DNA from: Haliotis rufescens
Lineage: Eukaryota
NCBI RefSeq assembly: GCF_023055435.1
Contig: NW_025964392.1
Location: 434,001-498,000 of the forward strand
DNA: 64,000 nucleotides
Direction of reading: 5' to 3'
Numbering within the stretch: position 1 is the stretch's first letter; each line of letters begins with the position of its first letter. Positions 28,228-58,588 of this stretch are shown here, piece by piece. Below the pieces are notes generated by a model. The model had not been told where the DNA came from. It saw only the letters and a program-made list of their open reading frames with translations, and ran no database searches. Both the position numbers and the translations under genes were made by a program.

Positions 28228-31200
28228 CTATATTTTATCATAGAGCTTGATTTCCTTTAAATACGCTAAAATCAAGTGATTAGAAACTGTGGTAAAAAGT
28301 TCAGATAAGGTACGAACATTATCATAAAAACGTTGCCTGACAAGTGCAAAATCAACACATTCCAGCAGAATGTGCTTCATAGTAAGAGGGCTATGGCAAG
28401 GTATACAAAAAGGTGGATCTTCACCCTTCAATAAAAATGAATGTGTACAATAACTGTGGCCAATGCGGCACCGCTGCAAAACAACTTCATCATGACGATA
28501 TAAACCAGAATGGGCGTGACCACCAATCAGTGGTTTGATAGCATGAAGTTTGTTCATAGTCTTGGTATTCCAACTTTTTTGCCAATGGTCATTCACATAT
28601 TGTCTGATGGAAGGTTTTAGATCAGAATATGGGAAGTTTGTGTTGGAAATTGGTTTATTAAGAGCAGCTTTTGCCGAAGAATCTGCTTTACAGTTACCAC
28701 TGATGCCAACATGACTGGGCAGCCAACAAAAAATTATATCTTTTCCAGCTACGGATAAATTGAGATGACACCTTAAAATTTCAGCTAAAAATGGATGATC
28801 CACTTTTCGATTTTTGATGGCCTGTAAACAGGACAAACTATCAGATAATATGAGAAAACTGCTTTTAGAAGACTGTTCAATATATTGCAAAGCTAATAAT
28901 ATAGCCTGAGCTTCTGCCGTAAATATCGAACTTCCGTCAGTTATACGCATAGACACTGTATAATTGTTAGCAACAGCTGCAGCAGACACCTTTTCATCAT
29001 CTTTTGAACCATCAGTGTAAATACTTGTATAAGAGGAATATCGGTTCTTCAGTTCATGAAATTCTTGTTGATAAAATAATTGATTAGTGTCAGACTTCTT
29101 CAGGTTCGCTAATTCTAAATTAACAGCAGGTTGTATCGATTGCCAAGGAGGCATTTCTGAGATTTTGTATTCAGCAATGGCAGAGAGATTTAAATGAGCA
29201 TCCTTGATATGGGATTGCATGCGAATTCCAAGTGGTGGGATTGTGTTTGGATTTCTTATATATAAATGCTGGTATGGAGCATTGAAGATATTGTTAAATG
29301 CTGGATTAGAAGGATGAGAGCAGAGTTTAGTGATATATTGTAATGCCAGTTTTATTCGTCTTAAGCAAAGACTGGGTTCATTGGCTTCCACATATAGACT
29401 TTCAATTGGCGATGTCCTAAATGCTCCAAGACACAACCGAAGACCCTGATTGTGAATAGTGTCAAGGACTTGAATGTATGATTTACGAGCTGAGCCATAA
29501 ATGAAGCAGCCGTAATCAAGTTTAGACCTTATCAAAGTTCTATAGAGATGTAATAGTGTTTCTCTATCACCACCCCACCTAGTATTTGACACTACCTTTA
29601 AAATGTCAAGCGCCTTCAAACATCTAGCTTTAAGATTTTTAATGTGGGGTATAAATGATAACTTTTGATCAAAGGTAATACCTAAAAACTTGGTTTCTTT
29701 GACCACTTTTATTGGAGTATTATTTAAAGTCAATTCAGGATCTTTATGCAGTTTCCGTTTATTGCAAAAATGAACACAGCAGGTTTTAGTTTTGGAAAAC
29801 TTAAAACCATTTTCTAAGGCCCATTTCTGTATTTTATTGAGACAAAGCTGTAACTGTCTCTCAATGCTATTCATATTTGCACCACAGCATGAAACATTAA
29901 AATCGTCAACAAACAACGAACCATCAATATTTTCATTTAAAACTTGAGCAAGACTGTTGATTTTAATGCTAAAAAGTGTCACTGATAAAATACTGCCCTG
30001 AGGGACCCCCATTTCCTGATCATATATCTCGGACAATGTGGATCCAACTCTAACTTTAAATTTTCTATCTTCTAAAAAGCGAGTGATGAAATCAGGCATA
30101 CGGCCACGTATACCCATGTCGTGGAGATCTTTTAATATACCATACTTCCACGTGGTATCGTAAGCCTTCTCAAGATCAAAAAAGATCGACACAACATGTT
30201 GCTTGTTTACAAAGCCATTCCGTACAAATGATTCCAATCGGACAAGATGATCGATGGTGCTCCTGTTGTGTCTAAAACCACACTGAATGTCTGTGATCAG
30301 ATTATTTGATTCAAGAAACCAAACGAGACGCCGGTTAATCATCCGTTCCATGGTTTTACAGAGACAACTTGTCAGAGCAATAGGTCTGTAATTAGAAGAA
30401 TCTGTGTGATCTTTACCAGGTTTAGGCACAGGTATTACAGTAGCCTCATGCCAGGAAGGAGGGAAGTTACCATTTTCCCATATACTATTAAATATGGATA
30501 AAAGGGTTAAAAGAGAAGTCTCAGGAAGATGTTTCAAAAATTGATAATGTACGTCATTTGGACCAGAAGCTGTATCATGAGCCTTGTTCAAAGCCTCTTG
30601 TAACTCAGTCAACGAAAAGGATTCATTATAATCCTCTGCATTATCAGACCGAAAATTCAGAGTTTTCCTTTCCTGCTGATTTTGAAATTTTTGAAATTTT
30701 GGGTCATAGTTGCTAGAGGAGGAATTTTGGCTGAACGTTTCTGCCAACTTATTAGCAATATCCTGTTTTGATGTCAATACATCATGATTAGATTGTAGAT
30801 GCTGAATATTGCTCTGTGACCCCTTTCCTTTTATCTTTCTTATCATATTCCATACTTTATTAAGGGGTGTACGAGAATTTATTTTTGAAACAAACTTTTT
30901 CCAGCTTGAACGTCTATTTTGTTTAATTGTTCTACGAGCCTTTGCTCTTGACATTCTTAAGCAGTTTAAATTATTGGCAGTTGGGTGTTTATTAAACACT
31001 CTTTCAGACTTTTTCCTATTTTTCCGAGCTTTTCTACAATCGTCATTATACCATGGTGTTTTTACATGTGGATTTGTCGAGGTCTTAGGAATAGTTTCTG
31101 TGGCAATGTTGATTAATTTATCCGAAAATGATCTGATCTGATCAGGATCATCAATAAAATTTTCAAAGGTTAATTTATCACTGCACATTGTACTAAAGGT

Positions 31201-31914
31201 TTGCCAATCTGCCTTGTTGAGTTTCCATTTAGTAATGGGTGGGTCCTGACAAGGAACGATAGTTTTGAGTAAGGTTGGGAAATGATCACTCCCACAAAGG
31301 TCATCATGTACTGACCATGAGAACTCATCTAAAAGAGACGGATCAGCAAAGGCTAAATCAAGAGCTGAGTAAGTACCAGTCGCTGGATGTAAATACGTGT
31401 TGCTACCATCATTAAATAGACAGAGATCATGCTTCTGGAGCAACTCTTCGAGTATTTTCCCTTTATGATTTTGATCACCCGAACCCCATAATGGGTTGTG
31501 ACCATTTAGATCGCCCATAAGCAAAAATGGCTTAGGAAGTTGGGTGATAAGAGTATCTAAATCTTTTATCTGAAGTGCAGTGGATGGAGGTAAATACAGA
31601 GAACATAAAGTAATAGCAATATGCAGAGTTAATCGTACTGCAACTGCCTGTAGGTTGGTATTTAGCGGTATAGCACTGTGTAATGTTCCTTGTCGAACGA
31701 GTACACTGGCACCACCCGTTCTTTTACTATTGGTAACCCTTGCATATGAATGAAACATATGATATTGACGGAAGTCAATATTATCGCAATCTCTTAAATA
31801 TGTTTCTTGAAGACTAAAAGCCACAGGATTAAATTCCTTAGATAGAAGTTTAACCTCATCAAAATTCGCCCTAAGCCCTCGACAGTTCCATTGTATAATA
31901 GTGTTATTATGCAT
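28228..31914 (-). CDS. LINE ORF2: AP endonuclease - reverse transcriptase - RNase H - C-terminal Cys/His motif (1228 aa)
   Basis: QWNCRGL, LQET, GDLN, SDHFP; GVPQGSILS, FVDD; YTDGSK...AE...SDS...WLPSHVGISGN. Confidence 0.96.
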   Translation of the reverse strand: MHNNTIIQWNCRGLRANFDEVKLLSKEFNPVAFSLQETYLRDCDNIDFRQYHMFHSYARVTNSKRTGGASVLVRQGTLHSAIPLNTNLQAVAVRLTLHIAITLCSLYLPPSTALQIKDLDTLITQLPKPFLLMGDLNGHNPLWGSGDQNHKGKILEELLQKHDLCLFNDGSNTYLHPATGTYSALDLAFADPSLLDEFSWSVHDDLCGSDHFPTLLKTIVPCQDPPITKWKLNKADWQTFSTMCSDKLTFENFIDDPDQIRSFSDKLINIATETIPKTSTNPHVKTPWYNDDCRKARKNRKKSERVFNKHPTANNLNCLRMSRAKARRTIKQNRRSSWKKFVSKINSRTPLNKVWNMIRKIKGKGSQSNIQHLQSNHDVLTSKQDIANKLAETFSQNSSSSNYDPKFQKFQNQQERKTLNFRSDNAEDYNESFSLTELQEALNKAHDTASGPNDVHYQFLKHLPETSLLTLLSIFNSIWENGNFPPSWHEATVIPVPKPGKDHTDSSNYRPIALTSCLCKTMERMINRRLVWFLESNNLITDIQCGFRHNRSTIDHLVRLESFVRNGFVNKQHVVSIFFDLEKAYDTTWKYGILKDLHDMGIRGRMPDFITRFLEDRKFKVRVGSTLSEIYDQEMGVPQGSILSVTLFSIKINSLAQVLNENIDGSLFVDDFNVSCCGANMNSIERQLQLCLNKIQKWALENGFKFSKTKTCCVHFCNKRKLHKDPELTLNNTPIKVVKETKFLGITFDQKLSFIPHIKNLKARCLKALDILKVVSNTRWGGDRETLLHLYRTLIRSKLDYGCFIYGSARKSYIQVLDTIHNQGLRLCLGAFRTSPIESLYVEANEPSLCLRRIKLALQYITKLCSHPSNPAFNNIFNAPYQHLYIRNPNTIPPLGIRMQSHIKDAHLNLSAIAEYKISEMPPWQSIQPAVNLELANLKKSDTNQLFYQQEFHELKNRYSSYTSIYTDGSKDDEKVSAAAVANNYTVSMRITDGSSIFTAEAQAILLALQYIEQSSKSSFLILSDSLSCLQAIKNRKVDHPFLAEILRCHLNLSVAGKDIIFCWLPSHVGISGNCKADSSAKAALNKPISNTNFPYSDLKPSIRQYVNDHWQKSWNTKTMNKLHAIKPLIGGHAHSGLYRHDEVVLQRCRIGHSYCTHSFLLKGEDPPFCIPCHSPLTMKHILLECVDFALVRQRFYDNVRTLSELFTTVSNHLILAYLKEIKLYDKI

Positions 31915-33140
31915 TATGGTGCACTGACAGGAGACCTTTCACGGCCTTTTTTCCTAGGGGAATGGCTTCTTGATCGTGTGTTTTGTGGAGAAGACACATC
32001 CATGTCCTCGAACACACCAAACCTATTAAACATAGTAACAGGATCTCTTTGACCCTTAGGGAGACGATCTGATTTGCCTTTGTTTTTTGAGTAATCAACA
32101 TTTGGATTTGATTTCTTAGCTGGTTTTTGGGTAGGTGTTTGAGAACTGGCAGTTTCTAAGACAATTGCTGAATTAGCAGAAAGTGAAAGTATTTCAGGTG
32201 ATTCCGTTGAGGTCCATGTGTAATCTGTCTGACATCCGACAGTTGTGTGTGAAACAGGCTGGGGAACAGGCCGTGTACTTGGTCGTGAAACAGCTGCAGA
32301 GTAAGAATTTCGAACACACTGTTCTTCATCTAAAACAATTTTCTTAGCATCTTGAAAAGAGATGTTCCGCTCATGTTTGACTTTGACAACCTTTGACTCG
32401 CGTTTCCATACTGGACATTCTTTTGAGGAGGAAACATGGTTACCGCCACAATTCACACATGAGGGATCTTTATCACACTCAGAACCATCTGCACAATTGC
32501 CACCACAGCGATGACAAGCAGCCTGTTTGTCGCATGCTCTGGAACCATGTCCATAGTGTTGACATTTGTAGCATCTCAATGGATTTGGTATGTACATATC
32601 AACCTTGATACTACAATATCCTGCTCGAATTGAAGTTGGAAGAGTCGGAGTACCAAAAGTAAACAGGTACGTATTGGTCTTGGTGACCTCACCATTTCTC
32701 TTTGAAGTAAACCGTTTCACAGAGAGAACATGTTGGCTTTTGAGTTCTTCAAGGATATCTTCTTCACTCATATCAGCCAGGAATCTACCTCTGTCTCGTA
32801 CTATTCCCTTGCTGCTATTTAGTGACCTATGCGGAGAAACCACAACGGGAACATTTGCCAGTGACTTTATGGACAGAAGGCTAACTGCTTGTTTGTGTCT
32901 CTTACATTTTATCAGCAAACACCCACTACGTAGTCTTTTGGCATCTTCGACATCTCCAGCTATGCCTTGTATAGCCTTCTCAACGGCAAATGGGTTAAGC
33001 TTAAGAGGTGAACCATCCAAAGCAGAAATGACTAGAAATCTGGGCCAGTTTTCAAAAGTGACAGTAGCCTGCGGACGAACGTCCTCAGTACCAAACGAAT
33101 CATCTGAATCATGGGAACGTTTTTTCATAGGGGGTTCCAT
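31914..33140 (-). CDS. LINE ORF1, gag-like nucleic-acid-binding protein (408 aa)
   Basis: YIPNPLRCYKCQHYGHGSRAC and CVNCGGNHVSSSKECP zinc knuckles; stop codon overlaps the ORF2 start (TAATG). Confidence 0.94.
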   Translation of the reverse strand: MEPPMKKRSHDSDDSFGTEDVRPQATVTFENWPRFLVISALDGSPLKLNPFAVEKAIQGIAGDVEDAKRLRSGCLLIKCKRHKQAVSLLSIKSLANVPVVVSPHRSLNSSKGIVRDRGRFLADMSEEDILEELKSQHVLSVKRFTSKRNGEVTKTNTYLFTFGTPTLPTSIRAGYCSIKVDMYIPNPLRCYKCQHYGHGSRACDKQAACHRCGGNCADGSECDKDPSCVNCGGNHVSSSKECPVWKRESKVVKVKHERNISFQDAKKIVLDEEQCVRNSYSAAVSRPSTRPVPQPVSHTTVGCQTDYTWTSTESPEILSLSANSAIVLETASSQTPTQKPAKKSNPNVDYSKNKGKSDRLPKGQRDPVTMFNRFGVFEDMDVSSPQNTRSRSHSPRKKGRERSPVSAP

Positions 33141-39088: not shown

Positions 39089-39130
39089 ATCGCTTCTTGG
39101 CCTTTTGGCTAAGATCAAAGTGTAGTATCT
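39089..39130 (+). ncRNA. U2: U2 snRNA 5' fragment (first ~42 nt), non-functional
   Basis: ATCGCTTCTTGGCCTTTTGGCTAAGATCAAAGTGTAGTATCT matches the conserved U2 5' end, including the branch-point recognition sequence GTAGTA. Confidence 0.95.
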
Positions 39131-39768
39131 TGACCGAATTCTCAGGGGATGACGGTGGACTTTTGTGTTGACTCTTGGATTCGTGGATTTGCGGAGGTGA
39201 TTTTATTGTGTGCTCACTTTTTGCAGGTCTTCCAGCTGGTACTGTCACTTTTTAAGTCAGATTAGATTTGACGACAAAACCCCACTGGGACAGGGCTGGC
39301 AGTGATGCGGAGAGTGTGGCGAGTGAGAAGAAACATTTGGAGATTGAAAAAGAGTACCAGAGACAGGAGGGGAGAGAGAACGACATGAGAGAGAGAAAGA
39401 GGTTACCCTCGGGGTAAGGGGATGTCCGGTTACCCTCGGGGTAAGGGGACGTCACGGAAAAGTAGGGGCCTGGTCCAGGGACTCTGGAGATAGGAAGAAA
39501 CGGCGTTCATATTCCTCGCAGACAGTGTCCCCGGAGTCGGAAAGGTGTCCACCAGTGTGAGAGGTGTTGCCCCCATTGATCCCGGCATTGATCACCATCA
39601 CTCTTTTTATGTATAATTTCGTTTCATCACAACCAGGATATGAGCTTTTCCTGGAAGGTGACTATTTATTGTGTGTTTTTCCCCCTCAGGTCTACGGGTG
39701 GGTACAGGTACCTTGAGTACCCGAGGACCTCTAGTGGTCACCCGGCCCTCACATTTCCAGTATGGCAG

Positions 39769-40063
39769 GGGGGCACGGGTGGCCCAGTCGTCTAAGGCGC
39801 CGCGATTCGCTGTGCAGAGTTGCGCCCCTTTGGTACGCTAGAAACCTATGATTGTGGTGGGTTCGAATCCCGGTTCGCCCAAATTATGTTTCTAGGTTTT
39901 TCAGCACCATACCCGTGCTCGTGGGTTTCACCGAAGTGGTAAGACCTGCATCACATCGGGCTTTCCTCTCACATTAAGCTGACACGCCGTGATATAACTG
40001 GAATACTGTTGAAAGCGGCGTTAAACCCAACTCACTCACTCACTCACTCACTCACTCACTCAC
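39769..40063 (+). mobile_element. SINE family 1 inserted at the ORF1 start codon of element A
   Basis: TSD GTATGGCAG (39760-39768 / 40064-40072); long (CACT)n tail. Confidence 0.92.
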
Positions 40064-41096: not shown

Positions 41097-44000
41097 TGAG
41101 TGAGTGAGTGAGTTAAAGCTTTACATCACATCGGCAATATTTCAGCCATATCGTGACGAGAACATTTATAATACTGACATAGAATAAAACACCTGTCATC
41201 GACGGACAGTAGAACAACTAGCATATCACAGTTTATAAATAAAACTAGTCTAGAACAATTAAAAGAATAACCTATTATTCAACAATACATTATAAAAAAC
41301 GGGCTAGAGATCGCCAGCAACCAAAGTTAGGCCACCTAACTGGGGCCTGTGGGGACTTACAATACTTCTGCTACCTGCATGGCTCCCCAGCAGGATTTAC
41401 ACCATCCCTTCAGCAGCTGGCGATGGTACGCAATTAAGCCATAATTAAAACAAAACAAATATACTACGTTTAAAAACAGTGGTATGAATAAACGTACTTT
41501 CAGGACGTGGTCTTACATATCCTCTCAGGGGGACAATAATTTTACACTACTTCAACCCCCTTTGAGGATACAGCCACTAACCATCTATGTTACTCATTAA
41601 ACACTACCAATATTATAAAAATCAACTATGTACACAATCAAAATTTATCAATAAGTTCTATTTCTTTTAAAAATCCAACAATTAAATGACAACTGATACT
41701 ATTAAAAAGATCCTTTAGAGATGAAGATTTGAAATAGTTATCCCTTGTGATCGCAAAATCAACACAGTCAAGCAGGACATGCTGGACTGTGATTCTTTCA
41801 TCACAAGGGATGCAAAACGGTGGATCCTCACCTTTCAATAGATACTCATGTGTATATCTTGAATGGCCAATACGACATCGTCGGACAATGACCTCTTCAA
41901 ACCTGGACTGACAACCCAAGTAGGTATAACCGATATTTGGTTTTATTGCATGTAATTTATTTATACCCACTTGGGTGTCCCACTTCTTCTGCATTAGATT
42001 TCTGATGTAAGAACGGATAACAGGTTTATAGTCACTGTAGGGAAGAAGAAGTGGTGTCACAGATTTGTTGAGTGCTGCTTTAGCTGCAGCATCAGCCATT
42101 GTGTTGCCTTTTATGCCCACATGACTGGGCAACCAACAAAAGACGATGTCGTATTGGCCAGTTGAAAGATCATTATAAAGTTCTAAAATGTTTAAAATAA
42201 TTGGATGTTTAGAGGAGACTTTTTTCAGTGCCTGAAGGCAAGACAAAGAATCCGAAAAGATGATAAATTGTTTATATGCAGACTGTCGTTGAATGTATTT
42301 TAAGGCTGTAAGAAGAGCATTGGCCTCAGCAGTGAAAATAGAGCTAGTGTCTGGTATTCTAGATGAGATATGTTTTGATCCAACAACAGTGGCACATGCC
42401 ACCTTGCCACCATCCTTGGATCCATCAGTAAAGATTGAACGGTGGGTGTCATATTTATTTCTTAGTTCTACATATTCCTGTTGATATATAAGTTGATTGG
42501 TGTCAGATTTAATAAAACGGGTTAGAGAAACATCTACTTCTGGCCTCACCAGCTGCCAGGGAGGAGAAGACAAGAGACGATATGGTGAGATAATATCAAG
42601 ATCTATATTTGCAGCAATAATATGTGATTTCATCCGAATTCCAAGTGGTGGAATCAGCTTTGTTTTTTTCTGAAACAGCTCTTCATATAGGGGTTGAAAA
42701 ACGGAGTCATAAGCAGGATTAGAGTGTAATTTAGTGATATATTGAAGAGACAATTTAACACGGCGTTGTTTCAAAGGGAGTTCATCAGCCTCGACATAGA
42801 GGCTGTCAACAGGAGAAGTTCTAAAAGCACCAAGACACAGTCTGAGTCCTTGGTGGTGGATTGAATCTAGCTTTTTTAAATTGCTCTCGCAAGCTCCAGC
42901 ATATACAATGGAGCCATAATCTAATTTAGAACGAATCAATGATCTATAAAGGTGAAGGAGGGTTGTCTGATCCCCTCCCCACTTAGAATGCGAGACGACT
43001 TTTAACAGATCTAGGGCCTTCAGGCATTTAGTCTTTAAATATTTGATATGTGGCAAAAACGTCAAATGGTGGTCGAAAATTAATCCCAAAAATTTGGCTT
43101 CTTTAACAACCTTAATTGGAGTGCCATCTAAAGAGAGTTCTGGATCGTTATGGAGTTTATATTTCCGACAGAAATGAATACAATTTGTTTTGGTCTGTGA
43201 AAACTTAAATCCATTCTCAAGACACCATTTAGTAATTTTATTAAGACACAACTGTAACTGTCTTTCAATGGTATGCATATTTTGACCACGACATGAAATA
43301 TTAAAATCATCCACAAACAATGACCCATCTATTGAGTCATTTAATACTTTAGATAAACTATTTATTTTGATGCTAAACAAAGTGACAGACAAAATACTGC
43401 CCTGTGGAACCCCCTGATCCTGATTATAATGATCAGACAGGGTTGATCCAAAACGAACTTGAAATTGTCTGTCAGTTAAAAACTGTGATACAAATTGAGG
43501 CAAGCGGCCTCTTAAACCAAAGTCATGTAAATCTTTTAAAATACCATGCTTCCAAGTGGTATCATAAGCTTTTTCAAGATCGAAAAAGATAGATACAGCA
43601 TGCTGTTTATTTACAAAAGCACTTTTAACAAATGATTCTAAACGAACCAAATGGTCAATTGTACTTCGGTTTTTACGGAAACCACATTGGATGTTACTAA
43701 TCAGATTATTGGTTTCTAAAAACCAAACTAATCGATTATTTACCATGTGTTCCATGGTTTTACAAACACAGCTAGTTAATGAAATAGGTCGATAATTTGA
43801 TGGATCGGTATGATCCCTGCCAGGTTTTGGTATGGGTACAACTATCGCATTTCTCCATGAAGGAGGAAAATGTCCAGTTGTCCATATATGATCAAAAATA
43901 TTCAGTAGCGTTGTAAGACAAGAATCAGGCAAGTGTTTTAAGAGCTGATAATGAATATCATCAGCACCAGTCGCAGTATCATGAGCTTGTGCTAAAGCAG

Positions 44001-44615
44001 TGTGTAGTTCATTTAGTGAAAAAACTTCATTATAATCTTCGCCGTTGTCAGAATTAAAATTAACGTTTTTCTTCTCTTGTTGTTGTTGATACTTCTGAAA
44101 CTTTGGATTATAATTTGACGAAGAAGAATGTTTAGCTAAAGTTTCGCCCAATTTATTAGCAATATCTGATTTTTCCGTCAATAAATTATTGTCATCTTTA
44201 AGATGACGAATGCAAGATTTAGAACCCTTGCCTTTGATTCTTTGGATCATGTTCCATACCTTTGACATAGGCGTGCGTGAATTTATTTTAGAAACATATT
44301 TCTTCCAAGACTGACGTTTATTGTGTTTAAATGTTCGTCGAGCCTTGGCAGAGTTAATTTTCACAGTGTTTAAATTATGTACAGTAGGATGGCGTCGAAA
44401 GTATTTCTCTGCCTTCTTCCTACGCTTCCTAGCTTGTTTGCATTCGTCATTAAACCATGGTTTCCGAATATGTGAGTTCATAGAGGACTTAGGAATAGAT
44501 TCATCAGCTATGTTCTTCAGTATGTCAGAGAATGATTGAATTGGATCAGTGACATCCATGAAAAGGTTTGGTTTCAATTTGTCAATACACATAGTCTGAA
44601 ATAATGGCCAATTAG
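41097..44615 (-). mobile_element. 5'-truncated Nimb-like LINE (second family) with an open RT-RNase H frame (41638-~44615)
   Basis: TSD GGGGAGCGAGAG (41085-41096 / 44616-44627); FVDD, FTDGSK; long 3' UTR and (CACT)n tail. Confidence 0.94.
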
Positions 44616-46613: not shown

Positions 46614-46904
46614 TATTAATATAAAGTGTACATAAAATCAACATTATTGTACATTTTTACCAGTATATATATATGTCCCCTACTTTGTCTCCCCATTCCC
46701 ACTTTATTAAATTTGTGTATATATATAATTGTGGTTCTACGTTTTACGTTTGTGACATTTCCTCTTTACTTTGAATTGTTATGGCCACTACTCCGACCAC
46801 TGTGAGACTTTATTTTATTTAGGAGTAGTGGCCCTACTGCTGTCCAAATGTGTAGTTTCTTTTCCATGTGAATAAATTTATTACAAAAAAAAGAGTATCT
46901 GTTC

Positions 46905-48005
46905 CTGGAGCTACATTGGAGGACAACTCTGGATTGATCTTGTGTTTCTGTTCCCTGGATTCTTGGAGGAAGTGGTAACTATATTGTGTGACTGACTAAC
47001 TTTCTTCTCTTTACAGATCGACGGGTGGGCCTACCACAGTTGTAAAACTGTGGTAGTAGACCTTCAGTGGTCACCCCCCATTTATTCCTGTCTTTTCGCC
47101 GCCATGGCACTCGCTGTGGACCAGTGCGACAGGGACCCAGGCATCGCCCCACGTACCATATCAGAGCGCAATCAAAGGTGAGAGGATTCTCAAGAGAGGC
47201 CTTATTTTATGCCATTCAGAAAGCTTATCGCTGGCATTTCCGTTAAAAACATTTTTTCAATCTGGAATACTGAACAGAACGGAACATGGTTTATAACGTT
47301 TCATGATCAAAGGAGAGTCAAAGCTTTGTTAGATGCAGGATCAGTTCCTTTTATAGATGGTTTCATTCAATTCAGCCATTACACAAAAAAGGTAACATTG
47401 TTACGAGTTCATTGGCTACATGAAGACGTCAGAGACAGTTTCGTTGCAAAACATTTCAGCAGGTATTTTTGTCACGTTGTCATTAATATCTATTATAATA
47501 ATTAAAGCATCATATGTCCTTTTTTAGTGTACCGACCCAATGATTGACCCCAATTGCCCCACATTATTATCTATTAATTCACAGTTTTGATATAGTACGT
47601 AAAACAATCTTTGTACATCAAAATTAGGCCCCCTCTGATGACCCCATTTGCCCTGTATTTAAATGCTTGTATATATGGATATGTAATGTTGTATATATAT
47701 ATATATATTGACATATAATGGTTATTTTAGAATTGTATATATATCAAGATAAAGTGTAAATAAAATCAACATTTGTACATGATTACAAGTATGTCCCTAA
47801 CTTTGTCTCCCCATCCCCACTTTATTTAACTAGTATTTACGTTTTACTTGTTTGTGACGTTTCCTCTTCATTTTGAACTGACATGGCCACTACTCCGACC
47901 ACTGTGATACTTTATTTTATTTAGGAGTAGTGGTCTTATTGCTGTCCAAATCTGTATTATATTTTCCATTTTCATGTGAATAAATTTATTATATATATAC
48001 AAAAA
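46905..48005 (+). mobile_element. Keno-like element B, ~1.1 kb internally deleted copy
   Basis: 5' leader, then ORF1 5' part (RVHWLHEDV) joined to a 3' UTR similar to element A; bounded by AGTATCTGTTC and AGTATC. Confidence 0.82.
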
Positions 48006-48010
48006 GTATC

Positions 48011-49830
48011 GACTTCAAGAAAGCAGTTGGATTACAGTGGATATACATGTGTATGTGCTTTTTCTTGGACCCAGGGTGACGAGTCATTGTGTGATTTTAC
48101 TCTTTTCCCTTCAGGTATACGAGTGGGTGCAGGTACCTTGTGTACCTGAAGACCTTCAGTGGTCGCCCCTCACCTTCCGAGCATGGCAGAGGCAGGAGCG
48201 ATGTGTACTGGCGCTGTACCGCAGCACTTCTTTGACAAGGAGGCTATCCACAACACCCTGAGGATCTCTTCCCGTATGCGAGGACTAACGAATGAACAAG
48301 TGTTTCAGGTACTTTTGACATCCATTGAAACGGTTACTGCCAAAGATATTAGTTCAATCTGGAAATCTAAAAATGGGAATGACTATTTCGTCACCTTCAA
48401 GGAACATAAATATGTTCATCTGTTCAGCTGTATGAATAGTGTAAACTTTTATGGGCAGTGGTATACTTTCTCCCCCCCTATGACAGTCAAATCATTGAAC
48501 TTAAAATCCATTGGTTGCATGGCACCATTGGTAACCAGTACTTGGTGCACTTCTTCTCAAAATATGGGAAAGTGTTAGGAGTGCGTAGGCACAAAGAATT
48601 CCTAGACAATGAACCAATTGAAACTGGTATTCGATACGTTGATCTACAACTCCAAAGCTATGACACTGACCTCCCATACATTGTCAAGATGGGTAAGCGC
48701 ATGTCAATGCTCATTTCTACTTCTGGCAGATTGCCAATATGTTTCAACTGCAATCGTATTGGACACTTGCGGAGTGCCTGTCCTGACAGACAGCCACCTT
48801 CCAGGTTCACAGTCGTGTCAGACACATATGCAAAAGCTGCAAACATTGGGTTGCGAGACCAGGACGCAGCATCCATTACAAGCATGAGTGAGGTAGAGGG
48901 CGTGGCGCCTTTTATTGGCCCGCTTCCTAAAGAAGCATTTGATGACAATGAAATGGAGGTCAAAGGTGAAGGGAAGGGTGAAGGTGTTTTCGAAGGGAGA
49001 GGAGAGAATCCTTCTGTGGAAAAGGAGGTTTCAACAAACAATGAGGTACCCTGTGACATTGGAGATGGAGAGGTTCAATTCTCACAAGATGGCGATGATG
49101 CTATAAGTGTAATTAGTGATCATGATTTTTCTCCCCCTTACCCTTTACCACAGTCCAAAGGAAATCCAGAGGCAAGTCTAACGGTAAAGACACTTCAAGG
49201 GGTAGTAAAAGAGGCTCCGAGGTGGAATCCCCTTCTAGGAGGCACCCCTTTTCCCAGTGTGGTCCAGGACAAGCTGCAGTTATTTCAGAAAGTCAGAGAA
49301 CGTCTCCCAGGGGTGCACTTAAAAAGTTGAGAGCTGGTGAAGAGGCCCCAATGACCTAATTTAAAGGTGCCTTTCAAATTACTCCCAAAATGACGACGCT
49401 ACGCCCCAGACTATGAATATAGAACAACAGAATCAAACACTCTCCCTGGCAGTAATAATCAAGGATCGTGTACATTTTATTTTAGATCAATTTAGGTTTG
49501 ATGTAGATGTGAGGTATTTATTATTAGATTGTAGTATAAATGAGACTAGGATTCGATTAATATTTATGCTCCTAACAATTCGGTAGATAGGGTGATATTT
49601 TTCCAAAATATTTCAAAACATTTTGTGACTAATGGACTTTTAATTATGGGAGGGGATTTTAATTGTGTTTGTGATATCCAACTTGATAAAGTAAGTGGGA
49701 ACGTGAGAGGTAATCAACAAGGCGCGGTTCTTATTGGACAATGGGTTTCTGACAATTCTCTTACTGACATATTTCGTTCTTTATTTCCAGACTTGGTGAT
49801 GGTGTCTCGGCGTAATGCTGCTTTGACAAG
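48011..49830 (+). mobile_element. Keno-like element C: 5' leader, frameshifted ORF1 (48183-49330) and endonuclease remnant
   Basis: ORF1 with CFNCNRIGHLRSAC knuckle; NIYAPN and MGGDFNC endonuclease motifs. Confidence 0.87.
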
Positions 49831-53697: not shown

Positions 53698-56600
53698 CTA
53701 TATTTTATCATAGAGCTTGATTTCCTTTAAATACGCTAAAATCAAGTGATTAGAAACTGTGGTAAAAAGTTCAGATAAGGTACGAACATTATCATAAAAA
53801 CGTTGCCTGACAAGTGCAAAATCAACACATTCCAGCAGAATGTGCTTCATAGTAAGAGGGCTATGGCAAGGTATACAAAAAGGTGGATCTTCACCCTTCA
53901 ATAAAAATGAATGTGTACAATAACTGTGGCCAATGCGGCACCGCTGCAAAACAACTTCATCATGACGATATAAACCAGAATGGGCGTGACCACCAATCAG
54001 TGGTTTGATAGCATGAAGTTTGTTCATAGTCTTGGTATTCCAACTTTTTTGCCAATGGTCATTCACATATTGTCTGATGGAAGGTTTTAGATCAGAATAT
54101 GGGAAGTTTGTGTTGGAAATTGGTTTATTAAGAGCAGCTTTTGCCGAAGAATCTGCTTTACAGTTACCACTGATGCCAACATGACTGGGCAGCCAACAAA
54201 AAATTATATCTTTTCCAGCTACGGATAAATTGAGATGACACCTTAAAATTTCAGCTAAAAATGGATGATCCACTTTTCGATTTTTGATGGCCTGTAAACA
54301 GGACAAACTATCAGATAATATGAGAAAACTGCTTTTAGAAGACTGTTCAATATATTGCAAAGCTAATAATATAGCCTGAGCTTCTGCCGTAAATATCGAA
54401 CTTCCGTCAGTTATACGCATAGACACTGTATAATTGTTAGCAACAGCTGCAGCAGACACCTTTTCATCATCTTTTGAACCATCAGTGTAAATACTTGTAT
54501 AAGAGGAATATCGGTTCTTCAGTTCATGAAATTCTTGTTGATAAAATAATTGATTAGTGTCAGACTTCTTCAGGTTCGCTAATTCTAAATTAACAGCAGG
54601 TTGTATCGATTGCCAAGGAGGCATTTCTGAGATTTTGTATTCAGCAATGGCAGAGAGATTTAAATGAGCATCCTTGATATGGGATTGCATGCGAATTCCA
54701 AGTGGTGGGATTGTGTTTGGATTTCTTATATATAAATGCTGGTATGGAGCATTGAAGATATTGTTAAATGCTGGATTAGAAGGATGAGAGCAGAGTTTAG
54801 TGATATATTGTAATGCCAGTTTTATTCGTCTTAAGCAAAGACTGGGTTCATTGGCTTCCACATATAGACTTTCAATTGGCGATGTCCTAAATGCTCCAAG
54901 ACACAACCGAAGACCCTGATTGTGAATAGTGTCAAGGACTTGAATGTATGATTTACGAGCTGAGCCATAAATGAAGCAGCCGTAATCAAGTTTAGACCTT
55001 ATCAAAGTTCTATAGAGATGTAATAGTGTTTCTCTATCACCACCCCACCTAGTATTTGACACTACCTTTAAAATGTCAAGCGCTTTCAAACATCTAGCTT
55101 TAAGATTTTTAATGTGGGGTATAAATGATAACTTTTGATCAAAGGTAATACCTAAAAACTTGGTTTCTTTGACCACTTTTATTGGAGTATTATTTAAAGT
55201 CAATTCAGGATCTTTATGCAGTTTCCGTTTATTGCAAAAATGAACACAGCAGGTTTTAGTTTTGGAAAACTTAAAACCATTTTCTAAGGCCCATTTCTGT
55301 ATTTTATTGAGACAAAGCTGTAACTGTCTCTCAATGCTATTCATATTTGCACCACAGCATGAAACATTAAAATCGTCAACAAACAAGGAACCATCAATAT
55401 TTTCATTTAAAACTTGAGCAAGACTGTTGATTTTAATGCTAAAAAGTGTCACTGATAAAATACTGCCCTGAGGGACCCCCATTTCCTGATCATATATCTC
55501 GGACAATGTGGATCCAACTCTAACTTTAAATTTTCTATCTTCTAAAAAGCGAGTGATGAAATCAGGCATACGGCCACGTATACCCATGTCGTGGAGATCT
55601 TTTAATATACCATACTTCCACGTGGTATCGTAAGCCTTCTCAAGATCAAAAAAGATCGACACAACATGTTGCTTGTTTACAAAGCCATTCCGTACAAATG
55701 ATTCCAATCGGACAAGATGATCGATGGTGCTCCTGTTGTGTCTAAAACCACACTGAATGTCTGTGATCAGATTATTTGATTCAAGAAACCAAACGAGACG
55801 CCGGTTAATCATCCGTTCCATGGTTTTACAGAGACAACTTGTCAGAGCAATAGGTCTGTAATTAGAAGAATCTGTGTGATCTTTACCAGGTTTAGGCACA
55901 GGTATTACAGTAGCCTCATGCCAGGAAGGAGGGAAGTTACCATTTTCCCATATACTATTAAATATGGATAAAAGGGTTAAAAGAGAAGTCTCAGGAAGAT
56001 GTTTCAAAAATTGATAATGTACGTCATCTGGACCAGAAGCTGTATCATGAGCCTTGTTCAAAGCCTCTTGTAACTCAGTCAAGGAAAAGGATTCATTATA
56101 ATCCTCTGCATTATCAGACCGAAAATTCAGAGTTTTCCTTTCCTGCTGATTTTGAAATTTTTGAAATTTTGGGTCATAGTTGCTAGAGGAGGAATTTTGG
56201 CTGAACGTTTCTGCCAACTTATTAGCAATATCCTGTTTTGATGTCAATACATCATGATTAGATTGTAGATGCTGAATATTGCTCTGTGACCCCTTTCCTT
56301 TTATCTTTCTTATCATATTCCATACTTTATTAAGGGGTGTACGAGAATTTATTTTTGAAACAAACTTTTTCCAGCTTGAACGTCTATTTTGTTTAATTGT
56401 TCTACGAGCCTTTGCTCTTGACATTCTTAAGCAGTTTAAATTATTGGCAGTTGGGTGTTTATTAAACACTCTTTCAGACTTTTTCCTATTTTTCCGAGCT
56501 TTTCTACAATCGTCATTATACCATGGTGTTTTTACATGTGGATTTGTCGAGGTCTTAGGAATAGTTTCTGTGGCAATGTTGATTAATTTATCCGAAAATG

Positions 56601-57384
56601 ATCTGATCTGATCAGGATCATCAATAAAATTTTCAAAGGTTAATTTATCACTGCACATTGTACTAAAGGTTTGCCAATCTGCCTTGTTGAGTTTCCATTT
56701 AGTAATGGGTGGGTCCTGACAAGGAACGATAGTTTTGAGTAAGGTTGGGAAATGATCACTCCCACAAAGGTCATCATGTACTGACCATGAGAACTCATCT
56801 AAAAGAGACGGATCAGCAAAGGCTAAATCAAGAGCTGAGTAAGTACCAGTCGCTGGATGTAAATACGTGTTGCTACCATCATTAAATAGACAGAGATCAT
56901 GCTTCTGGAGCAACTCTTCAAGTATTTTCCCTTTATGATTTTGATCACCCGAACCCCATAATGGGTTGTGACCATTTAGATCGCCCATAAGCAAAAATGG
57001 CTTAGGAAGTTGGGTGATAAGAGTATCTAAATCTTTTATCTGAAGTGCAGTGGATGGAGGTAAATACAGAGAACATAAAGTAATAGCAATATGCAGAGTT
57101 AATCGTACTGCAACTGCCTGTAGGTTGGTATTTAGCGGTATAGCACTGTGTAATGTTCCTTGTCGAACGAGTACACTGGCACCACCCGTTCTTTTACTAT
57201 TGGTAACCCTTGCATATGAATGAAACATATGATATTGACGGAAGTCAATATTATCGCAATCTCTTAAATATGTTTCTTGAAGACTAAAAGCCACAGGATT
57301 AAATTCCTTAGATAGAAGTTTAACCTCATCAAAATTCGCCCTAAGCCCTCGACAGTTCCATTGTATAATAGTGTTATTATGCAT
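53698..57384 (-). CDS. LINE ORF2 (APE-RT-RNase H), intact, 1228 aa
   Basis: Same motifs as 28228-31914. Confidence 0.95.
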   Translation of the reverse strand: MHNNTIIQWNCRGLRANFDEVKLLSKEFNPVAFSLQETYLRDCDNIDFRQYHMFHSYARVTNSKRTGGASVLVRQGTLHSAIPLNTNLQAVAVRLTLHIAITLCSLYLPPSTALQIKDLDTLITQLPKPFLLMGDLNGHNPLWGSGDQNHKGKILEELLQKHDLCLFNDGSNTYLHPATGTYSALDLAFADPSLLDEFSWSVHDDLCGSDHFPTLLKTIVPCQDPPITKWKLNKADWQTFSTMCSDKLTFENFIDDPDQIRSFSDKLINIATETIPKTSTNPHVKTPWYNDDCRKARKNRKKSERVFNKHPTANNLNCLRMSRAKARRTIKQNRRSSWKKFVSKINSRTPLNKVWNMIRKIKGKGSQSNIQHLQSNHDVLTSKQDIANKLAETFSQNSSSSNYDPKFQKFQNQQERKTLNFRSDNAEDYNESFSLTELQEALNKAHDTASGPDDVHYQFLKHLPETSLLTLLSIFNSIWENGNFPPSWHEATVIPVPKPGKDHTDSSNYRPIALTSCLCKTMERMINRRLVWFLESNNLITDIQCGFRHNRSTIDHLVRLESFVRNGFVNKQHVVSIFFDLEKAYDTTWKYGILKDLHDMGIRGRMPDFITRFLEDRKFKVRVGSTLSEIYDQEMGVPQGSILSVTLFSIKINSLAQVLNENIDGSLFVDDFNVSCCGANMNSIERQLQLCLNKIQKWALENGFKFSKTKTCCVHFCNKRKLHKDPELTLNNTPIKVVKETKFLGITFDQKLSFIPHIKNLKARCLKALDILKVVSNTRWGGDRETLLHLYRTLIRSKLDYGCFIYGSARKSYIQVLDTIHNQGLRLCLGAFRTSPIESLYVEANEPSLCLRRIKLALQYITKLCSHPSNPAFNNIFNAPYQHLYIRNPNTIPPLGIRMQSHIKDAHLNLSAIAEYKISEMPPWQSIQPAVNLELANLKKSDTNQLFYQQEFHELKNRYSSYTSIYTDGSKDDEKVSAAAVANNYTVSMRITDGSSIFTAEAQAILLALQYIEQSSKSSFLILSDSLSCLQAIKNRKVDHPFLAEILRCHLNLSVAGKDIIFCWLPSHVGISGNCKADSSAKAALNKPISNTNFPYSDLKPSIRQYVNDHWQKSWNTKTMNKLHAIKPLIGGHAHSGLYRHDEVVLQRCRIGHSYCTHSFLLKGEDPPFCIPCHSPLTMKHILLECVDFALVRQRFYDNVRTLSELFTTVSNHLILAYLKEIKLYDKI

Positions 57385-58588
57385 TATGGTGCACTGACAG
57401 GAGACCTTTCACGGCCTTTTTTCCTAGGGGAATGGCTTCTTGATCGTGTGTTTTGTGGAGAAGACACATCCATGTCCTCGAACACACCAAACCTATTAAA
57501 CATAGTAACAGGATCTCTTTGACCCTTAGGGAGACGATCTGATTAACATTTGGATTTGATTTCTTAGCTGGTTTTTGGGTAGGTGTTTGAGAACTGGCAG
57601 TTTCTAAGACAATTGCTGAATTAGCAGAAAGTGAAAGTATTTCAGGTGATTCCGTTGAGGTCCATGTGTAATCTGTCTGACATCCGACAGTTGTGTGTGA
57701 AACAGGCTGGGGAACAGGCCGTGTACTTGGTCGTGAAACAGCTGCAGAGTAAGAATTTCGAACACACTGTTCTTCATCTAAAACAATTTTCTTAGCATCT
57801 TGAAAAGAGATGTTCCGCTCATGTTTGACTTTGACAACCTTTGACTCGCGTTTCCATACTGGACATTCTTTTGAGGAGGAAACATGGTTACCGCCACAAT
57901 TCACACATGAGGGATCTTTATCACACTCAGAACCATCTGCACAATTGCCACCACAGCGATGACAAGCAGCCTGTTTGTCGCATGCTCTGGAACCATGTCC
58001 ATAGTGTTGACATTTGTAGCATCTCAATGGATTTGGTATGTACATATCAACCTTGATACTACAATATCCTGCTCGAATTGAAGTTGGAAGAGTCGGAGTA
58101 CCAAAAGTAAACAGGTACGTATTGGTCTTGGTGACCTCACCATTTCTCTTTGAAGTAAACCGTTTCACAGAGAGAACATGTTGGCTTTTGAGTTCTTCAA
58201 GGATATCTTCTTCACTCATATCAGCCAGGAATCTACCTCTGTCTCGTACTATTCCCTTGCTGCTATTTAGTGACCTATGCGGAGAAACCACAACGGGAAC
58301 ATTTGCCAGTGACTTTATGGACAGAAGGCTAACTGCTCGTTTGTGTCTCTTACATTTTATCAGCAAACACCCACTACGTAGTCTTTTGGCATCATCGACG
58401 TCTCCAGCTATGCCTTGTATAGCCTTCTCAACGGCAAATGGGTTAAGCTTAAGAGGTGAACCATCCAAAGCAGAAATGACTAGAAATCTGGGCCAGTTTT
58501 CAAAAGTGACAGTAGCCTGCGGACGAACGTCCTCAGTACCAAACGAATCATCTGAATCATGGGAACGTTTTTTCATAGGGGGTTCCAT
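57377..58588 (-). CDS. LINE ORF1 with frameshifted C-terminus (403 aa)
   Basis: Nearly identical to 31914-33140 up to the deletion near 57543. Confidence 0.85.
   Translation of the reverse strand: MEPPMKKRSHDSDDSFGTEDVRPQATVTFENWPRFLVISALDGSPLKLNPFAVEKAIQGIAGDVDDAKRLRSGCLLIKCKRHKRAVSLLSIKSLANVPVVVSPHRSLNSSKGIVRDRGRFLADMSEEDILEELKSQHVLSVKRFTSKRNGEVTKTNTYLFTFGTPTLPTSIRAGYCSIKVDMYIPNPLRCYKCQHYGHGSRACDKQAACHRCGGNCADGSECDKDPSCVNCGGNHVSSSKECPVWKRESKVVKVKHERNISFQDAKKIVLDEEQCVRNSYSAAVSRPSTRPVPQPVSHTTVGCQTDYTWTSTESPEILSLSANSAIVLETASSQTPTQKPAKKSNPNVNQIVSLRVKEILLLCLIGLVCSRTWMCLLHKTHDQEAIPLGKKAVKGLLSVHHNA

Follow-up and report, generated by a model that had tools for sequence, protein, structure and literature searches.

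The question raised by this locus is whether a small RNA fold, proposed as a conserved three-way junction just upstream of ORF1 in three Keno-like elements of Haliotis rufescens, is a genuine cis-acting RNA and what it might do for the elements that carry it. The window, the whole 64,000-nucleotide stretch of contig NW_025964392.1 that was analyzed (C614:434001-498000), is part of the decayed flanking region of a U2 snRNA array whose unit is 1169 bp. Along C614 (676 kb), elements follow a U2 5′ head, end in AATAAA and a poly(A) tract, and are succeeded by the rest of U2; some encode ORF1 and a 1150-amino acid ORF2, and many encode ORF1 only. An intact copy of the same array has APE endonuclease, RT and zf-RVT domains in ORF2 by Pfam, ORF1 carries a zinc knuckle, and the tails are poly(A). 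The combination of APE and RT in ORF2, a zinc knuckle in ORF1 and a poly(A) tail is that of non-LTR retrotransposons of the Tx1 clade. Two ORF1 matches are named, from Haliotis asinina and Mya arenaria.

The specific insertion into U2, with the order of head, element, poly(A) and rest of U2 repeated along C614, is that of Keno, a U2 snRNA-specific family of the Tx1 clade according to passages of PMC4494074 and PMC4640811. The elements resemble Keno in the APE, RT and zf-RVT domains of ORF2, the gag-like ORF1, the poly(A) tail and insertion beside the U2 branch-recognition region, but differ in that sister families here target U1 and U4 and that many families are ORF1-only. Their 3′ junction appears to lie approximately 3 nt upstream of the Utopia/Keno flank given in a passage of PMC4640811, with three more U2-matching bases before the flank, and the Keno passages of PMC4494074 and PMC4640811 describe neither a 5′ RNA structure nor a splice site.

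The junction is present at all three places proposed in the window (39696-39743, 47023-47079 and 48121-48170; Table 1), where the core pattern GACC-N6-GGTC-RCCC occurs three times against 0.24 expected, a count reached by 1 of 100 shuffles. When folded alone, the segments at 47017-47082 (-32.2 kcal/mol, z -4.75) and 48115-48173 (z -2.76) adopt the junction as predicted, whereas that at 39690-39750 has a different minimum free energy structure (z -1.47). The variable hairpin of the 47023 copy is, as described, an 11-bp helix with a GUAA cap. The carriers are Keno-like, and two of the three, those at 39696 and 48121, are akin to one another (67% over ~1 kb). The elements of all three copies are broken and survive as fragments; a zf-CCHC domain was found in the ORF1 piece 3′ of the 48121 junction, an unrelated repeat has inserted at 39770-40049 after the ATG of the third copy, and a possible fourth copy at 39211-39288 gave a model match that is not significant (E 0.43).

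Table 1. Features of the junction-bearing elements in the window.
Feature	Position	Strand	Basis or detail
U2 target-site remnant, start of the 47023 element	46895..46904	+	3′ of the upstream element's poly(A); sequence, same boundary recurs along the array
Predicted "anti-head" leader segment complementary to U2 nt 1-9	46968..46976	+	U2-head helix score 9.0 vs U1 5.0, U4 6.5
Branch-point-like CTGACTAAC	46992..47000	+	Sequence; YTRAY in 32/39 leaders vs 31% of shuffles
Candidate polypyrimidine tract and CAG acceptor	47000..47016	+	Sequence; CAG/TAG/AAG in 99/101 copies
Six unpaired nt from AG to P1; family pattern R-U-C-N-A-C	47017..47022	+	
Three-way junction	47023..47079	+	P1 47023-29/47074-79 (U bulge), P2 47031-41/47046-56, P3 47059-62/47069-72; model 57.1 bits
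ORF1 ATG of the 47023 element	47104..47106	+	Frame broken after 25 codons; internal deletion
Second copy	48100..48171	+	Pyrimidine tract, CAG 48112-14, GTATAC, junction 48121-48171, ORF1 ATG 48183; 58.1 bits
Third copy	39674..39749	+	Pyrimidine tract, CAG 39687-89, GTCTAC, junction from 39696, ATG 39762; 49.9 bits
U2 5′ head (39089-39130; Rfam U2 match), leader, CAG 39224-26, possible decayed fourth copy	39089..39288	+	Anti-head segment at 39193
3′ end of upstream element: stem-loop, AATAAA, poly(A)	46782..46892	+	
Second such 3′ end	~47884-48006	+	

Among the features of the 3′ ends is a conserved stem-loop of the 3′ UTR whose loop contains CTGTGATA (46782-46835 and 47884-47940 in the window, and in all arrays); it is common to autonomous and ORF1-only families and is likely the recognition signal of ORF2p. 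Pairing of this loop with loop 3 of the junction was considered and rejected, as it fits the window family only and loop 3 varies. At C614:925000-1077000 (L018-L074) lie many ORF1-only elements of ~1.7 kb with open ORFs of 420-500 amino acids and Keno-type 3′ stem-loops; the three tested had no Pfam match, and we take these elements to resemble half-L1 elements. On the minus strand of the window, near-identical intact non-LTR elements are nested in the decayed array flank (28228-33140, 53698-58588 and 41638-44592), with a C-terminal RNase H-like region judged by eye, and are presumably of I/Nimb type.

A first covariance model, built from 13 copies, gave 101 matches at E ≤ 0.05 in 1.02 Mb, and a second model gave 9 further matches in 200 kb, which together make approximately 110 junction copies, carried by Tx1/Keno-like elements that sit in the snRNA arrays of U2, U1 and U4. 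The layout in 51 parsed copies is an AG, six unpaired nucleotides (R-U-C-N-A-C), P1, P2, P3, one nucleotide, the P1 partner, a pyrimidine-rich stretch and the AUG. P1 is the outer helix of the earlier note, present but corrected to 6 bp with an optional bulge; P2 is variable, and P3 has 3-4 bp with a 4- or 6-nt loop. The P3 hairpin had been called invariant in both loop and stem, and it is neither across the family: UUCG replaces the 6-nt AGT loop in 15 of 51 copies, that loop being invariant only within the families of the window, and GACU/AGUC, GGCU/AGCC or GUC/GAC occur as well as the GACC/GGTC stem.

Covariation on this wider alignment is extensive. Among 63 distinct rows, which are related and whose alignment was fitted to the structure, 93.3% of cells are paired compared to 77.7% when shuffled, two-sided changes occur at 15 of 19 pairs, and 0 of 500 shuffles reach any of the measures; shifting the partner by 1-3 columns lowers pairing to 30-56%. 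On an ORF1 protein tree of 30 copies, which is independent of the motif, P1 and P3 together need at least 13 two-sided events, with the register picked by pairing score and one mis-parsed row of 51 excluded. The model pairs contain 54 G-U against 11 A-C, an excess suggesting that the sense-strand RNA is the folded molecule. Adding 54 nt of leader to the fold lowered the number of copies with a predicted P1 from 35 to 24 of 51. A search of Rfam 15 over the junction returned no match at gathering score and only chance-level overlaps at E up to 10, the sole Rfam match in the window being the U2 fragment at 39089. The suggestion of an undescribed cis-acting RNA has held up, in the form of a sense-strand, covarying fold of Keno-like Tx1 elements that has no Rfam match.

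The earlier note had missed two parts, an acceptor site with six unpaired nucleotides ahead of P1, and the larger module of which the junction is one component. CAG, TAG or AAG stands six nucleotides ahead of P1 in 99 of 101 copies, the other two being point changes with the tract intact, and the spacing from AG to P1 is exactly 6 nt in every parsed copy. Across 39 distinct leaders (27 U2 and 12 U1, several closely related), the median length of the AG-free zone is 51 nt, compared to 13 nt in shuffles, and 32 leaders carry a branch-like word (YTRAY) 10-45 nt upstream of the AG, against 31% of shuffles. The features of a U2-type 3′ splice site are thus all present: branch word, pyrimidine tract, AG-free zone and YAG/R. 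The AG lies 116-158 nt from the head in U2 elements, 66-109 nt in U1 elements and 91 nt in U4 elements.

The position just before the ORF1 ATG holds in the window (24, 11 and ~18 nt) and widens to 0-34 nt across the 51 parsed copies. Translation initiation, processing and packaging had been offered as functions with none chosen; the fixed AG spacing, set against the variable AUG distance, favors a nuclear role involving splicing factors over ribosome entry of fixed geometry. A translation element for ORF1, acting by internal entry or shunting and leaving the acceptor a separate purpose, would account for a junction that always lies just before the ORF1 AUG with a pyrimidine-rich stretch next to it, for the common upstream AUGs (31 of 39 leaders have upstream ATGs) and for retention of the junction in ORF1-only families. 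The geometry described above argues against it, as does the repetition of tract, AG and junction together, as one unit, two or three times in several autonomous families, and this explanation is quite unlikely.

In the 39 leaders every candidate donor falls below a score of 4, against 8.9 for the consensus, and none is better than its own shuffles, using a matrix that is not species-specific. Neither the 101 model matches nor the 9 outlying matches from two exact searches of the genome include a leader-less or spliced-out copy. A short 5′ UTR intron with a weak donor, spliced inefficiently in cis to give a spliced message and an unspliced template in a ratio set by the junction and alternative pairings, is nevertheless suggested by a GT kept near nt 31, or ~60-70 nt before the AG, in many U2 families, and by good leader donors in 5 of 22 relatives of other animals. 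Plain MAFFT with RNAalifold, which did not recover the junction because the 4- and 6-nt loops misalign, also gave a candidate alternative pairing, a helix that hides AG-GUC by pairing it with the 5′ strand of P3. As the main fold, however, this helix was rejected, as it shows no two-sided change and exceeds a population of 0.2 in a single copy of 51; best donors at chance level and, in several U1 families, GT-type sites found only 29-45 nt from the AG also count against cis-splicing, which we consider unlikely.

The unpaired strand itself raises the possibility of a 5S rRNA relic or mimic, in which the module descends from a 5S-headed ancestor or binds a 5S-binding protein. Its common form after the AG, GUCUACG, equals nt 1-7 of the host 5S rRNA, and four families also have the partner of 5S helix I ahead of P3. 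Beyond 7 nt, however, the similarity is no more than that of shuffles, 116 of 150 of which match 5S equally well, the first two nucleotides are expected from the acceptor consensus, and 200 kb of 5S array held no close Tx1 relative or model match, making this very unlikely. A 5S origin of the whole fold, as a SINE3-like head, was rejected, since the match is confined to the first 7 nt and does not extend to the internal promoter boxes. In a 5S array at C445:49.38-49.73 Mb (L268:1501-1619), 5S genes alternate with an opposite-strand histone H1-like gene in a 3-kb repeat.

R2, L1Tc and further non-LTR elements carry HDV-like ribozymes at their 5′ ends. The junction occupies the same position, and a new self-cleaving ribozyme or exonuclease-resistant RNA (xrRNA), making or guarding a 5′ end at the AG, would suit its compact form, its conserved unpaired 5′ strand and tandem repeats like those of viral xrRNAs. 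The core words sought were CUGANGA and GAAA for the hammerhead, a conserved L3 and a catalytic C-R-A-A junction for HDV-like ribozymes, and conserved L4 or junction words for twister and pistol. As the earlier note had judged for hammerhead, HDV and twister, these words are absent or rare in the 51 copies (0-3), and pistol fares no better: CUGANGA occurs in 3 and the GAAA core in 1, HDV-like L3 words in 3 and C-R-A-A in 0, with both hairpin loops varying freely, and the twister and pistol words in 0 each. A class 1 xrRNA was likewise rejected, as the pseudoknot complement of loop 3 downstream is 3.7 nt versus 3.6 nt in shuffles and the loop is UUCG in 15 of 51 copies. Few bases of the junction are invariant, and cleavage at the AG would discard a leader that is kept in all copies, so this is the least probable of the readings. 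An HDV-like ribozyme is described at the 5′ end of L1Tc in a passage of PMC4758252. The likeness to those of R2 and L1Tc is that a structured 5′ UTR RNA lets the element live off the promoter of its target gene; the differences are another fold, no catalytic core words, a position 66-158 nt inside the transcript behind an acceptor, and a host RNA head that is kept rather than cut off.

That head is part of the module. The snRNA heads carry family-specific changes after ~nt 20, indicating that they travel with the element, and a leader segment upstream of the acceptor complements the snRNA 5′ end of the element's own head, tracking the target (U1, U2 or U4). The excess over shuffles is largest with the matching head for U1 leaders (2.7, against 0.7 and -0.2 for the other two heads) and for U2 leaders (2.0, against 0.1 and -0.2). 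The U4 leaders, four near-identical copies, have an excess of 3.5 with the U4 head but 4.1 with the U2 head, a pattern compatible with newly gained U4 pairing as well as with a retained U2-type word; the U4 case came up after the anti-head idea had been noted. Judged by duplex energy, an anti-head helix stands out in U1 leaders (10 of 12, p ≤ 0.05) and is weak per copy in those of U2 (7 of 27).

The explanation that we place first, tentatively, is that the acceptor may act as a decoy that recruits early spliceosome factors, so that a transcript from an snRNA promoter is elongated and polyadenylated. The transcript presumably begins at snRNA +1 from the U1, U2 or U4 promoter, and its snRNA end would be paired away in cis by the leader complement. 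The branch point, pyrimidine tract and donor-less AG would bind U2AF, SF1 and U2 snRNP without a cut, and the RNA would be handled as one terminal exon, leading to elongation, polyadenylation and export. The junction, as the downstream half of this 5′ module, might bind a protein, cover the exon start, or both. Remaining unspliced and full length, the RNA would be usable as message and as template. This reading is drawn from the acceptor features, the fixed 6-nt spacing, the lack of a leader donor, the 3′ poly(A) signals (AATAAA or ATTAAA near the 3′ end in all 16 elements examined) and the lack of a spliced-out copy; the module was found in U1, U2 and U4 elements, whose targets are Pol II genes. 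PMC3737548 indicates that the terminal acceptor, rather than intron excision, couples to 3′ end formation, and passages of PMC11610936 that transcription, both of snRNA genes and close to promoters, can stop at T-rich tracts. The resemblance to the terminal exon definition treated in PMC3737548 is that an acceptor acts on 3′ end formation without excision of an intron, but there the acceptor ends a real gene intron, and here there is no donor, an snRNA promoter and a conserved fold after the AG.

Several observations weigh against a decoy acceptor. It explains the acceptor better than the junction, a relative in a tRNA array that lacks the module also has AATAAA, and the missing spliced copies could also be explained if spliced RNA fails to integrate. 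Among 22 foreign snRNA-headed leaders, an acceptor-like site is present in 12 and absent from 10, and 5 have a good donor. Depletion of donors or poly(A) signals in element bodies was sought and rejected, as counts are not below shuffles (donors 11 vs 10.6 shuffled and 14 antisense; internal AATAAA 20 vs 15). In 6 of 7 autonomous elements of C614 a strong internal donor lies 360-930 nt after the acceptor, mostly inside ORF1, a poor fit to one terminal exon; 1 of 9 ORF1-only elements has such a donor. A second acceptor ahead of ORF2 was also rejected, with a candidate in 4 of 9 own spacers and none near the ATG.

Trans-splicing fits the anatomy of the module equally well, but needs a spliced leader (SL) system. 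The snRNA-headed leader would be an outron, a spliced leader or other capped exon would be joined at the AG, with the junction serving to mark or adjust the exon start. A donor-less acceptor at a set distance from the transcript start is the signature of an outron, as in SL trans-spliced genes and elements of the NeSL-1 and SLACS type, and removal of a leader with upstream ATGs and a predicted paired capped end would aid translation. Here, however, the targets are U snRNA genes rather than SL exons, and a mollusc SL system is not established: the passages of PMC3795323 and PMC12460157 listing phyla with proven SL trans-splicing do not include molluscs. PMC7986045 likewise contains no mollusc passage. 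No SL-like gene was found in the three repeat units examined (5S, U2 and U1), and no copy among the 101 matches begins at the AG, making trans-splicing unlikely. The readings are not all mutually exclusive; weak cis-splicing, a translation element, a 5S relic and a ribozyme or xrRNA rank below a decoy acceptor and trans-splicing.

The same motif precedes ORF1 in elements of U1 genes and, within a U4/U6 array, in elements of U4 genes. One site in U1 stem-loop I is occupied by autonomous and ORF1-only Tx1 elements at C46:10.79-11.28 Mb, C64 and C105 (L076-L086, L102-L115 and L328-L331), and in a 1477-bp U4/U6 tandem array at C112:12.75-12.79 Mb (L321-L325) the U4 genes carry an intact Tx1 family near nt 32. 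The ORF2 RT regions of the U1, U2 and U4 families are ~51% identical. In a quick RT tree of unnamed relatives, with no named Keno or Tx1L reference, the motif-bearing elements form two well-supported groups, U2 and U1 plus U4, within one clade that also holds six foreign elements; in the ORF1 tree, U1 targeting appears in two places. Judged from these sequences, the module is older than the split of its U1, U2 and U4 families.

As far as seen, the module is also lineage-restricted. Two exact genome-wide patterns matched almost entirely in these arrays, with a few dispersed copies, and nine outlying matches proved on checking to be chance. The module had no match in three tRNA-array and two dispersed relatives, nor, below E 0.6, in 139 foreign loci (80 from a second metagenome scan and 59 from a genome scan), many of which lack a 5′ end. 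A first metagenome scan found nothing, and viral contigs gave one chance match and no relatives. The 10 of 22 foreign snRNA-headed elements with no acceptor-like site indicate that the module is not required for an snRNA-targeting life.

The foreign elements have features of their own. Tx1 elements lie behind U1 heads in L118, L145, L149, L156, L197, L198, L205, L208 and L209, and behind a U5-U4 head in L134, in animal DNA within metagenomes and bacterial genome bins; such bins are contaminated with host DNA, and U1 targeting looks widespread. One Tx1-like family occurs in different tRNA gene arrays (L332, L333 and L336). Long leaders at L149:1450-2000, L206:680-1230 and L216:4450-4730 contain tandem repeats in which TTGTAG precedes a small G-rich/C-rich hairpin. 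These leaders also have donors close to the 5′ end and may parallel the repeats of acceptor plus fold. Two other GC-rich leader motifs are shared among foreign snRNA-targeting elements, one in the leaders of L134, L143, L144, L161, L207 and L211 and one in the first 200 nt of L149, L205 and L206; they had no Rfam match in L134, L149, L205 or L206 and are possibly ribozyme-like RNAs.

In literature on Keno, Tx1, snRNA targeting, three-way junctions, ribozymes and Haliotis, the passages of PMC4640811, PMC4494074, PMC3706591, PMC8869645 and PMC4758252 describe neither the fold nor the leader acceptor; Tx1 families that target U1 or U4 could be on record in Repbase or in Kojima and Fujiwara (2004). 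A passage of a 2015 paper gives Keno and Utopia (U2), Dada-U1 and Dada-U6 as the only elements of snRNA genes. A further likeness is to SINEU and crocodilian Tx1-Mar, which in passages of PMC4494074 also have snRNA 5′ heads (U1- or U2-derived) on Tx1-type RNAs and whose mode of transcription is called an open question there; those insert into a Mariner element, whereas the elements here lie in snRNA arrays, are under an snRNA promoter and have a leader of their own that pairs with the head. The module is real, and apparently an undescribed cis-RNA of a known element class.

Tx1 elements are now shown in U1 and U4 arrays, and a strongly covarying RNA fold is added that Rfam lacks. A leader complement that follows the target from U2 to U1 to U4 amounts to covariation of the element with a host gene. 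A bolder reading, which is possible but doubtful, is that one portable device serves in three snRNA genes, a re-tunable head-hiding helix joined to a junction-locked decoy acceptor on which a half-spliceosome would stall, turning an snRNA-type transcript into an mRNA; if true, the snRNA and mRNA pathways would be linked by a minimal switch of natural origin. As to how elements that borrow snRNA promoters make long polyadenylated RNA, the module is a concrete, mutable candidate answer of 150 nt, and if the decoy acceptor is confirmed it would be a tool to study and use the mRNA output of snRNA promoters.
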